From the sequence record PP079210: a stretch of DNA of 40,520 bases; one strand, written 5' to 3'. Under the pieces are notes generated by a model. It ran no database searches. It saw nothing but the letters and a program-made list of their open reading frames with translations, and was not told the DNA's origin. This document shows positions 1,153 through 2,008 of the stretch, piece after piece (position 1 is the stretch's first letter; the number at the start of each line of letters is the position of its first letter). Source of the DNA: Escherichia phage phiYIO1-1. A program made the position numbers and the translations under genes.

Positions 1153-1453
1153 TAGTAACTTATGGTCTCTGCCAGCACCACGTCACCAACGCCCGGATTA
1201 TGGTCAAGACCGGGCAGTTAAACCACGATGCGACTATGCGCCACCTGAAAGCGGTCTATGAGGGCCGCAAGCGCATACACGACAGCTTACACACTGAGTG
1301 ATAAACGAGAGGTCATCGACTGATAGGTGGCCTCAAAGATTATCACTTAAATTGATAGGAGTTAACTATGGGTGTGGGATATTGGGTATGTCTAGCGCCA
1401 GTTATCTGGCTGATAGGGTATGGGATATACGACTGTATTAAACGGAAATCACT

Positions 1454-1651
1454 ATGAGTAGCGCAATATTGATAGCCATAGGCTATGGACTTATCGCCTA
1501 CGTGCTGATGAGAGACATCAACAAAGCGCGTAAAGTCTATAAATTCAACTATGTACGTCTGGGTCGCTGGACTGTACGTCAACCTAACGGACGATTCATG
1601 CGCAACTTAGCGAACGTCTGGGATATAGCAACTATTGGGAGCAAACTGTAA
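1454..1651 (+). CDS. Hypothetical early protein with N-terminal hydrophobic segment
   Basis: 65-aa ORF in the early region between gene 0.3 and gene 1; hydrophobic N-terminus (SAILIAIGYGLIAYVLM); stop overlaps the next ORF start (TAATG). No homolog recognised. Confidence 0.4.
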   Translation: MSSAILIAIGYGLIAYVLMRDINKARKVYKFNYVRLGRWTVRQPNGRFMRNLANVWDIATIGSKL

Positions 1652-1911
1652 TGAAAACCGTATACATTAACAAACCATCTATCCGTAGCCGTGTAGAGCA
1701 AATAGAGCGTGACGTGTTCTTACATCGCCGCATGGAGGCTGAGGGCCATAAGTCCGAACTGATGTGTCTGGCGTATGGTGGACGACCGATCACTGACGAT
1801 GGTAAACTTTTAGTCTCAGGCTGGAAGGCGATAGACCAACGGTCAACCATCAAGCACACGACTCACGGTGACTTCAGTCATCTTCACGCTAACCCACTGA
1901 TATGCAAGTAA
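1651..1911 (+). CDS. Hypothetical early protein
   Basis: 86-aa ORF, GGGAG RBS upstream, start overlaps the upstream stop; early-region position. No homolog recognised. Confidence 0.45.
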   Translation: MKTVYINKPSIRSRVEQIERDVFLHRRMEAEGHKSELMCLAYGGRPITDDGKLLVSGWKAIDQRSTIKHTTHGDFSHLHANPLICK

Positions 1912-1916
1912 TTATG

Positions 1917-1939
1917 ACTTAACTATCACTATAGGACTC
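1917..1939 (+). promoter_or_regulatory. Phage RNAP promoter immediately upstream of gene 1
   Basis: TTAACTATCACTATAGGACT matches the window consensus CTAAACTATCACTATAGGGA found at 10 other sites; T7-type core CACTATAGG. Confidence 0.7.
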
Positions 1940-2008
1940 AAGGTCTAAGACTCCAAGTGAAAGACCAAAGAGACTTTAAGTGAAAGACTAATAACAAGGA
2001 CTTTAAGT

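Follow-up and report, generated by a model that had tools for sequence, protein, structure and literature searches.

The early region between ocr and gene 1 of Escherichia phage phiYIO1-1 follows the K1F-type Kayfunavirus layout, with a likely gp0.4-family gene and no detectable gene 0.7-type kinase

In phage T7 (NC_001604) the early genes are arranged in the order 0.3-0.4-R0.5-0.5-0.6-0.7-1, with 0.6 comprising 0.6A/B. T7 gp0.4 inhibits FtsZ (PMC9372555), and more recent work describes the T7 kinase encoded by gene 0.7 as a counter-defence factor of broad action (bioRxiv 10.1101/2024.12.20.629319). A phenotype of filaments with multiple FtsZ rings was also observed upon infection with phage K1F and was credited by the authors to an "unknown K1F phage protein" (2022, PMC9372555); K1F was described in that study as lacking gene 0.4, and no BLAST similarity was found (PMC9372555). 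The presence of the kinase is known to be polymorphic among related phages, as stated earlier for CR44b and CR8 (PMC4038870). The layout considered here is already known, since the small genes of this region are annotated as gp0.35 to gp0.38 in K1F records.

Our analysis covered a window of 40,520 nucleotides, the whole stretch of phiYIO1-1 DNA in record PP079210, and focused on the interval 1153..2008, which extends over 856 bp from the end of ocr (1152) to the start of gene 1 (2009). Kayfunavirus vB_EcoP_F and K1F share the gene order of this region and show 96% nucleotide identity to the window over 700-2100, and both synteny and nucleotide identity thus identify the interval as a K1F-type Kayfunavirus early region. 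It contains four small plus-strand genes, a conserved RNA hairpin and a single phage promoter, giving the gene order 0.3-0.4-R0.5-B-C-D-1. The features are as follows.

808..1152, plus strand: gene 0.3 (ocr, 114 aa), the left bound; Pfam ocr E 9.8e-33; phrog_2568 ocr-like E 2.8e-54.
1149..1301, plus strand: ORF A, 50 aa (= K1F gp0.35), probably a diverged representative of the T7 gp0.4 family; pN/pS 0.34.
1296..1348, plus strand: putative R0.5-type RNase III processing hairpin, overlapping the ORF A stop codon; from fold and alignment.
1368..1457, plus strand: ORF B, 29 aa, a hydrophobic peptide for which a single membrane helix is predicted; pN/pS 0.27.
1454..1651, plus strand: ORF C, 65 aa (= K1F gp0.37), T3 gp0.6 family; pN/pS 0.36; phrog_2385 E 1.5e-31.
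1651..1911, plus strand: ORF D, 86 aa (= K1F gp0.38), an orphan predicted to form a helical hairpin; phrog_7066 E 8.3e-42; pN/pS 0.40.
1920..1936, plus strand: predicted core of a phage RNA polymerase promoter, directly 5' of gene 1, with an inferred start at G1934.
1937..2008, plus strand: conserved gene 1 leader, with no R1-type RNase III hairpin.
2009..4690, plus strand: gene 1, phage RNA polymerase, 893 aa, the right bound; 63% identity to T7 gp1 over 898 aa, E 0.

An earlier note, made from the letters and open reading frames of this DNA, had put the distance between ocr and gene 1 at about 850 bp, in agreement with the exact value, and had counted two or three small ORFs of 65-86 aa; the 65-aa and 86-aa frames (1454..1651 and 1651..1911) do exist, but the conserved genes number four, and those of 50 and 29 aa had been missed. 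We consider it likely that the interval makes up the right-hand half of a K1F-type Kayfunavirus class I (early) operon, with the gene roles discussed below forming part of this explanation; the functional assignments for phiYIO1-1 genes rest on homology or position. By synteny with T7 and T3, the host RNA polymerase would transcribe the region from left-end promoters during DNA entry. A scan for the sigma-70 consensus gave 5 sites versus 7.6 expected, by which the early host promoters could not be placed, and an Rfam search at E<=1 over positions 1-5200 returned no match. The ocr protein at the left bound is 60% identical to T7 gp0.3.

By profile homology ORF A falls within the T7 gp0.4 family. 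It starts at a GTG that shares bases with the ocr stop codon (GTGA) and is preceded, 7 nt upstream, by an AGGAGG Shine-Dalgarno sequence; because the ATG that starts K1F gp0.35 reads ATA in phiYIO1-1, GTG 1149 is the likely start, and translation of ORF A would be coupled to that of ocr. T7 gene 0.4 likewise abuts gene 0.3, at T7 position 1278. Alignment of the ORF A family with the gp0.4 family by hhalign gave a probability of 97.2% (E 3.4e-11, 43 columns), compared to a maximum of 13.6% among 30 column shuffles, and the two corresponding families, phrog_5058 and phrog_7202, hit each other reciprocally (2e-5 and 9e-5). Pfam family PF26807 (Phage_T7_GP04) is present on all 68 of 68 ORF A relatives, so that the assignment of ORF A to this family rests on proteins 63-96% identical to it, and also on CR8 gp0.4. 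Moreover, a homologue from a Ningirsuvirus phage forms a bridge, matching both the ORF A side and the gp0.4 side at an E of about 2e-6, and the 3' end of the ORF A gene aligns with T7 at the DNA level together with the hairpin downstream of it. In addition to homology, ORF A shares with the gp0.4 family the arrangement of a gene of about 50 aa that abuts gene 0.3 and is followed by an R0.5 site. T7 gp0.4 and ORF A are thus alike in size (51 versus 50 aa), in their position adjoining gene 0.3, in their coupling to it and in their profiles, while their identity amounts to only about 37%.

The hairpin at 1296..1348 has a minimum free energy of -26.7 kcal/mol (z -4.8; none of 200 shuffles folded equally well) and aligns with the annotated R0.5 of T3, R0.45 of phiYeO3-12 and the matching stretch of T7 at a mean column identity of 75%. 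In this alignment 97.9% of the cells are paired, compared to 27-45% after sliding of the partners, and compensatory changes occur in three pairs. The hairpin is therefore best described as a putative homologue of the annotated T3 R0.5, an RNase III site of the T7-group type, and by synteny with T7 and T3 RNase III would cut the early transcript at this site.

Downstream of the hairpin, ORFs B, C and D are linked by stop/start overlaps (ATGA between B and C, TAATG between C and D). ORF B is found immediately upstream of ORF C in every one of at least 12 relatives, at 62-100% amino-acid identity, and has a Kyte-Doolittle maximum (17-residue) of 1.74. It is left unannotated by most GenBank records. 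In its position ORF B is an analogue of T7 gene 0.5; homology to T7 gp0.5 was rejected, as neither tblastn nor blastp revealed similarity and the likeness is limited to the presence of a very small hydrophobic ORF after R0.5 and before the 0.6 gene. ORF C is a member of the T3 gp0.6 family, as judged from its homology (hhalign 97.5%, E 8.6e-12, with shuffles reaching at most 0.7%; blastp to T3 gp0.6, E 5e-10), its predicted N-terminal helix and its length of about 65 aa. The predicted membrane helix (Kyte-Doolittle maximum 2.16 at residues 3-19) precedes a basic tail (pI 11), and ORF C would therefore be a single-pass membrane protein whose tail is cytoplasmic by the positive-inside rule. In line with this prediction, homology to T3 gene 0.6 and a single TM are noted in the record of phage Pipis, and a TMHMM helix in that of CR8. 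T3 gp0.6 and phiYeO3-12 gp0.6A (65-67 aa) resemble ORF C in length, in the N-terminal membrane helix followed by RD, in a TVRxxNGRF motif and in about 42% of their residues, and differ from it in the last 15 C-terminal ones. T7 gp0.6A is a growth inhibitor reported to target MreB. ORF C was tried as a relative of this protein and rejected (hhalign 0.3%; separate PHROGs, 2385 versus 8393), and T3 gp0.6 and T7 gp0.6A are themselves paired by hhalign with a probability of 0.2%. Since ORF C is not T7 gp0.6A-like, the "0.6" label in DQ111067 denotes the T3 type.

Between ORF D and gene 1 lies a predicted promoter of the phage RNA polymerase. Its consensus, (T/A)AACTATCACTATAGG(A/G), occurs at 10 sites, all on the plus strand, compared to 0.07 expected, and the copy upstream of gene 1 is kept in all K1F-type loci; in two loci, L019 and L022, the specificity bases CTAT are changed to CCCT, and the RNA polymerases of both are divergent. 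A predicted promoter is annotated at the equivalent place in the CR8 record. The promoter at 1920-1936, which takes the place of promoter C and the R1 site of T7 and T3, would allow the polymerase to drive its own gene and thus generate positive feedback. Among K1F-type loci the non-coding stretch 1912..2008 shows 96-100% identity, versus about 85% at third codon positions of gene 1 and about 78% in gene D. When positions 1936-2012 were folded, the gene 1 leader scored no better than shuffles (z -0.5), so that an R1-type site is missing; at this position an R1 hairpin is found in T7, T3 and Przondovirus.

Flanked by the 0.6-type gene and gene 1, ORF D stands in the slot of T7 gene 0.7; it is an orphan. 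None of its 135 close homologues carries a Pfam domain, which bears out the earlier note in that the 86-aa protein was not recognisable, and only 14 representatives were found among 1.84 billion proteins; the exact 86-aa product was not found in the assembly index. Modeling with AlphaFold2 on a shallow alignment gave a pLDDT of 59, which rose to 79 when distant homologues were added, with helices at residues 11-31, 34-41 and 49-71 and a tail of low confidence. According to this model ORF D would be soluble and fold as a helical hairpin, with its strongest conservation in a flexible tail at the C-terminus (HTTxGDFSHLHANPLICK, highly conserved). The predicted fold found no informative structure match, and neither sequence nor fold links it to known inhibitors. 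As a tightly conserved orphan limited to Kayfunavirus-like phages, gp0.38 represents a reasonable target for interaction screens relevant to therapeutic K1-specific phages.

By sequence comparison phiYIO1-1 appears to be devoid of a T7 gp0.7-type kinase (PF27024 Phage_T7_kinase; phrog_2828). A tblastn search of the whole 40.5-kb window with T7 gp0.7 gave no match at E<=0.01 (best E 0.67), and the short kinase of Pisces gave none at E<=1e-3; the largest ORF in the gap encodes 86 aa versus about 240 aa for a kinase domain. The small ORFs are covered by these searches, which detected no kinase domain in them. The earlier note had seen no room for a gene 0.7-type kinase in the interval, giving the product of the T7 gene a length of roughly 360 aa (it has 359), and this view now extends to the whole window. 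Two homologues of other T7 proteins lie elsewhere in the window.

7693..7845, plus strand: homologue of T7 gp2 (host RNA polymerase inhibitor); tblastn E 1.4e-9, 44% identity over 52 aa.
15474..15680, plus strand: homologue of T7 gp5.7; tblastn E 3.4e-36, 77% identity over 69 aa.

In a close relative, PF16857 (RNA_pol_inhib) is found at the position of the gp2 locus. Without gp0.7, the shut-off of host transcription would fall to the homologues of gp2 and gp5.7, and ocr would serve in anti-restriction.

All four ORFs look like real genes under purifying selection: in comparisons with up to 18 related phages their pN/pS values of 0.27-0.40 resemble that of ocr (0.24), and position and reading frame are kept in up to 18 diverged loci. 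It is extremely improbable that they are open by chance and that the region is a regulatory spacer between ocr and gene 1. Searches of NCBIfam and PDB sequences with the small proteins returned no significant match. Their shortness (29-86 aa), the lack of a match in a local Pfam copy, and antisense ORFs of 75-79 aa that also lie in the interval would fit such a spacer; however, apart from selection and conservation across diverged phages, there are matches to PHROG families (E 1e-28 to 1e-42), homologues of two of the ORFs in other genera, and Shine-Dalgarno sequences and stop/start overlaps. With respect to ORF A, it is conceivable, if rather unlikely, that a gp0.4 homologue has switched its target and that another early protein causes the effect on FtsZ. 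The identity of about 37% to T7 gp0.4 over 43 columns, the absence of BLAST similarity according to the authors of PMC9372555 and the replacement of residues conserved in the T7 type (e.g. the CGFNWSLAM motif, TGQLNHDATM in the K1F type) point in this direction, while the YGL...MxxLKxxYxxxK framework is retained, size, position, coupling to ocr and the downstream RNase III site are all as in T7 gp0.4, and the K1F phenotype matches that of T7. By analogy with T7 gp0.4, the most likely role of ORF A is to bind FtsZ and prevent the Z-ring from assembling; this would explain why K1F infection leads to filamentation and multiple Z-rings. ORF A, i.e. K1F gp0.35, is the obvious candidate for the FtsZ-disturbing "unknown K1F protein", and the published puzzle that K1F disturbs FtsZ "although it lacks gene 0.4" hereby gains a direct candidate in the form of a diverged gp0.4.

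Other alternatives relate ORF D to the missing kinase. We find it very improbable that ORF D is a decayed N-terminal remnant of gene 0.7. Its location corresponds to that of gene 0.7 in T7 and T3, and one hhalign run paired its residues 65-84, roughly collinearly, with the glycine-rich loop of gp0.7 (68-87), but with a probability of only 0.26%; with the better profile built from 9 kinases the value was 0.2% and another segment was aligned. This candidate was consequently rejected, as the ORF D profile reached 0.2-0.3% against kinase profiles and did not exceed 0.3% with either T7 gp0.7 alone or the 9-kinase profile. Furthermore, an intact kinase and the 86-aa gene occur together in Pisces, L019, L022 and CR8, and ORF D shows purifying selection and a confident predicted helical fold of its own. 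The same co-occurrence bears on the idea that gp0.7 is replaced non-enzymatically by at least one of the small proteins, ORF D or B-C-D being the most plausible, in shutting off host transcription or in broad counter-defence. K1F-type phages do well in the absence of the kinase, the slot of gene 0.7 is filled by the 86-aa gene, the conserved flexible tail of ORF D resembles a docking motif, and compensation is conceivable given the counter-defence role of the T7 kinase (bioRxiv 10.1101/2024.12.20.629319). However, the 65-aa and 86-aa genes are also present in kinase-bearing relatives, and because these have both, ORFs C and D are not alternatives to the kinase; in addition, gp0.7 can be dispensed with in laboratory hosts, the genome has gp2 and gp5.7 homologues, and known inhibitors show no link to these proteins in sequence or fold. 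We therefore regard such a replacement as improbable. In the preferred reading B-C-D would act together at the inner membrane as a module that binds host proteins; the basis for a joint working of the three is confined to their stop/start overlaps and co-occurrence. As improbable as the replacement is a further proposal, in which this translationally coupled trio would be a new host-takeover or counter-defence module, a gp0.38 tethered to the inner membrane capturing a host protein via its invariant tail (TTxGDFSHL) and thereby providing K1F-type phages with early host control without the kinase.

Returning to the preferred reading of a K1F-type early operon, phiYIO1-1 resembles T7 in having ocr, an abutting gp0.4-family gene, an R0.5-type hairpin, a tiny membrane ORF and gene 1, and in an early terminator after the ligase gene. 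In contrast to T7, gene 0.7 is missing and an 86-aa gene stands in its slot, the 0.6 gene is of the T3 rather than the T7 type, and gene 1 is preceded by a phage promoter instead of the E. coli promoter C and R1 site. The claim of the earlier note that the early repertoire differs from that of T7 is thus confirmed, whereas its statement that none of the small ORFs is recognisable was wrong for two of the four (ORF A, gp0.4 family; ORF C, T3 gp0.6 family). The profile searches it had proposed accordingly placed the 65-aa protein in the T3 gp0.6 family and left the 86-aa protein an orphan, and the comparison with related phages revealed that the layout is not special to phiYIO1-1, being the standard K1F type, which hundreds of phage records share.

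In T3, Przondovirus and Ningirsuvirus a gp0.6-type gene lies just upstream of the kinase gene, while in phiYIO1-1 it lies upstream of gp0.38. Kayfunavirus phages of the Dev2/Pisces type and Caroctavirus CR8 are similar in that they carry a 29-34-aa membrane ORF, a 65-aa gp0.6-type gene, gp0.38 and a promoter before gene 1, but they differ by a 242-244-aa kinase (PF27024 Phage_T7_kinase) without the T7 C-terminal domain, which is encoded upstream of the membrane ORF and does not adjoin gene 1; Pisces moreover has a SAM hydrolase in place of ocr and is devoid of a gp0.4-type gene. The short kinase was found, with an identity of at least 80%, in 44 phage records (Dev2/Pisces subgroup, 244 aa); of the 223 records that contain the 86-aa gene, most are without it, and K1F-type and Dev2-type phages thus display the same contrast in kinase absence and presence as CR44b and CR8. 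Since a Kayfunavirus without gene 0.7 is the norm for the genus, its absence carries little weight as a genome feature, whereas gp0.35 and gp0.38 are worth keeping in view. Within the K1F type itself, K1F has a gene 0.2 upstream of ocr and a gene 0.36 (55 aa) that are both missing in phiYIO1-1, where the 29-aa ORF B is found instead, and ocr has the short 114-aa form in phiYIO1-1 and vB_EcoP_F compared to 169 aa in K1F. Otherwise K1F and vB_EcoP_F (AM084414, DQ111067, KY295894), likewise without the kinase, share with phiYIO1-1 the succession of ocr, gp0.35, a small membrane ORF, gp0.37, gp0.38, promoter and gene 1.

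The early region between ocr and gene 1 covers 856 bp (1153..2008), which agrees with the size of about 850 bp in the earlier note, and it carries four small genes on the + strand, here designated ORFs A to D, instead of the two or three ORFs counted there. ORFs A, C and D correspond to gp0.35, gp0.37 and gp0.38 of phage K1F, in which gp0.36 is a different small membrane ORF, while ORF B carries no annotation in most records. The features discussed are as follows.

373-588: 71-aa ORF, 97% identical to K1F gp0.1 (phrog_30192)
808..1152: ocr (gene 0.3), Pfam ocr E 9.8e-33
1149..1301, + strand: ORF A, GTG start, 50 aa
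1296-1348: RNase III-type hairpin, fold -26.7 kcal/mol, z -4.8
1368..1457, + strand: ORF B, 29 aa
1454..1651, + strand: ORF C, 65 aa
1651..1911, + strand: ORF D, 86 aa
1920-1936, + strand: phage RNA polymerase promoter, first consensus site
2009..4690: gene 1, phage RNA polymerase, 63% identical to T7 RNAP
7693-7845: gp2 homologue
15474-15680: gp5.7 homologue

The relative positions of ORFs A to D are kept in up to 18 related loci, and all four are considered real genes because their low pN/pS values (0.34, 0.27, 0.36 and 0.40 for A, B, C and D, respectively) are comparable with that of ocr (0.24). The start of ORF A overlaps the ocr stop codon (GTGA) and is preceded by AGGAGG; further stop/start overlaps at B/C (ATGA) and C/D (TAATG), together with that at ocr/A, suggest translational coupling. 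The window represents an essentially complete T7-like phage genome, on which T7 gp0.3 to gp19.5 can be placed in order; over nt 700-2100 it shares 96% identity with Kayfunavirus vB_EcoP_F and with K1F, and 257 phage records match. The early repertoire differs from that of T7, as had been proposed, but the region is an ordinary early region of the K1F type that had been annotated before. Contrary to the earlier note, in which none of the small ORFs was recognisable, two of the four can be assigned to families: A to that of gp0.4 and C to the homologues of T3 gp0.6.

A tblastn search with T7 gp0.4 gave a weak match at 1155..1277 (E 0.004, 39% identity over 41 aa). ORF A matches phrog_7202, the T7 gp0.4 family, at 2.3e-5, T7 gp0.4 in turn matches phrog_5058, the family of ORF A itself, at 9e-5, and a Ningirsuvirus protein bridges the two with about 2e-6 to each. 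When profiles of 16 ORF A-type and 19 gp0.4-type sequences were compared with hhalign, they aligned over 43 columns with 97.2% probability (E 3.4e-11), and the reversed and 30 column-shuffled controls all remained at or below 13.6%. Furthermore, precomputed matches to PF26807, available for the relatives of ORF A in the database, are present in all 68 of them; this family is termed "Phage_T7_GP04" at a CR8 locus and also matches the T7-like gp0.4 of CR8. Judged from these comparisons, ORF A/gp0.35 belongs to the gp0.4 family, and this placement, the most useful outcome of the analysis, bears on a published open point. T7 gp0.4 is an FtsZ-binding protein that prevents cell division (Kiro et al. 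2013, as summarised in PMC9372555). In its passages on K1F, PMC9372555 describes the same multi-ring filament phenotype upon infection "although it lacks the 0.4 genes", and holds "an unknown K1F phage protein" responsible, a BLAST search by its authors having returned no matches. ORF A/gp0.35 would be the obvious candidate for the K1F protein behind the FtsZ phenotype. The ATG start of gp0.35 in K1F is ATA in the window (1149-1154) and in the related locus L014, which leaves GTG 1149, in the context of the ocr stop (GTGA), as the likely start of ORF A.

The hairpin that follows ORF A can be aligned to the RNase III sites annotated as R0.5 in T3 and R0.45 in phiYeO3-12, and to the equivalent T7 stretch (mean column identity 75%). 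Its proposed pairs hold in 97.9% of cells, compared to 27-45% with the partners slid, and three pairs show compensatory changes; the window hence preserves, at the DNA level, the T7 succession of gene 0.4 and R0.5. The junction between gp0.35 and ORF B is a cassette-exchange hotspot. Many relatives carry one or more extra genes there (L011 1605-2235, L016 2522-3152, L014, L018, L020 and L021), one of which starts MYQITYSSEQAFYDGCYEMMKRGA, and the window has the minimal version of this junction.

ORF B, a hydrophobic 29-aa peptide, corresponds in position to T7 gene 0.5, CR8 0.705 and a 40-aa Ningirsuvirus ORF, each located just upstream of a 0.6-type gene, with no detectable sequence similarity to these three. 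The N-terminus of ORF C is hydrophobic (Kyte-Doolittle 2.16 at residues 3-19), and the rest of the protein is basic (pI 11). It shares homology with T3 gp0.6, with phiYeO3-12 gp0.6A and, in Przondovirus and Ningirsuvirus, with unnamed proteins of 65-66 aa (blastp 5e-10 to 8e-12; hhalign against the T3 gp0.6 family 97.5%, E 8.6e-12, shuffles at most 0.7%). Such features are also mentioned in the Pipis and CR8 records. A relationship with T7 gp0.6A was not demonstrable (hhalign 0.3%), and thus the targeting of MreB that has been reported for T7 Gp0.6 is not transferable to ORF C.

The proposed absence of a gene 0.7-type kinase, which has 359 aa in T7 (about 360 aa in the earlier note), was borne out: across the whole window T7 gp0.7 gave no match at E<=0.01 (best E 0.67), and the short kinase of Kayfunavirus Pisces none at E<=1e-3. 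By synteny ORF D sits in the gene 0.7 slot, since T7, T3, Przondovirus and Ningirsuvirus share the order 0.4/0.5/0.6, then 0.7, then 1. That ORF D is a kinase remnant was rejected, with hhalign probabilities of at most 0.3% and both genes coexisting in Pisces, L019, L022 and CR8, where the 242-244-aa kinase lacks the T7 C-terminal domain and lies upstream of B/C. Short kinases of the Dev2/Pisces-type Kayfunavirus and CR8 are found at L005 1844-2578 and L006 1875-2603, and their slot, before the 0.5/0.6-type genes, differs from that in T7 and T3. At 80% identity or more the short kinase occurs in 44 phage records compared to 223 with gp0.38, indicating a known module polymorphism in this phage group; the difference has been noted for CR44b versus CR8 (PMC4038870). 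A recent study presents the T7 kinase as a factor of broad counter-defence whose phenotypes in laboratory strains are weak (bioRxiv 10.1101/2024.12.20.629319). Lack of the kinase may narrow the counter-defence of the phage, but is not surprising.

ORF D itself matches phrog_7066, a PHROG of unknown function; none of its 135 close homologues has a Pfam domain, and when 1.84 billion representatives were searched exhaustively with a profile, only 14 proteins were found. Its C-terminal half is nearly invariant, above all HTTxGDFSHLHANPLICK. AlphaFold2 with a diversified alignment (pLDDT 79, pTM 0.60) predicted helices at 11-31, 34-41 and 49-71 and a low-confidence conserved tail. Our best guess is that this small protein binds a host protein and docks via the tail, and gp0.38 is an orphan worth an interaction screen.

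At the left end, which opens with the T7-type terminus TCTCACAG, a unit of roughly 13 nt (CCTACACCTACAGT and variants) is repeated in tandem at about 236-345; a similar repeat, (ACCTACAGTCAAC)x3, is annotated at the equivalent position in the record of CR8. The 71-aa ORF (373-588) lies where T7 keeps its early host promoters, and within it, at about 437-456, is a degenerate sequence resembling a phage promoter (TTACCTATTGACTATAGGTC); the label 'alpha,alpha-trehalase' of its vB_EcoP_F counterpart looks like a misannotation. K1F gene 0.2 (81 aa), located between gene 0.1 and ocr in K1F and in vB_EcoP_F, the closest relative of the window, is absent from 589-807, and the whole left end is thus more compact in the window than in these two phages. 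Elsewhere, a terminator-like hairpin (6578-6605, 12-bp stem, then a T-rich run) directly follows the ligase gene, where T7 has its early terminator TE. Homologues of T7 HNH endonuclease genes (gp2.8/gp7.7-like and gp3.8-like) at 12418-12852 and 39575-39889 are placed unlike in T7: one immediately precedes the DNA polymerase gene and the other is near the right end.

The promoter consensus (T/A)AACTATCACTATAGG(A/G) has 10 + strand sites compared to 0.07 expected, and the site at 1920-1936 is kept before gene 1 in all K1F-type loci. In L019 and L022, whose polymerases share only about 78% identity over the N-terminal 200 aa, it is altered to AAACCCTCACTATAGG (specificity bases CTAT to CCCT), the pattern that would be expected of a working promoter-polymerase pair. 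The 97-nt non-coding stretch 1912-2008 consists of this promoter and a leader of 72 nt in which AAGTGAAAGAC and GACTTTAAGT motifs recur. Across K1F-type loci this stretch shows 96-100% identity, compared to about 85% for third codon positions of gene 1 and about 78% for gene D. Conservation of the entire leader exceeds what the promoter alone explains; its RNA fold was not significant. A phage promoter directly before the polymerase gene would allow positive feedback, whereas T7, T3 and others have the R1 RNase III hairpin there instead, preceding gene 1 in T7 and T3 together with a host promoter.
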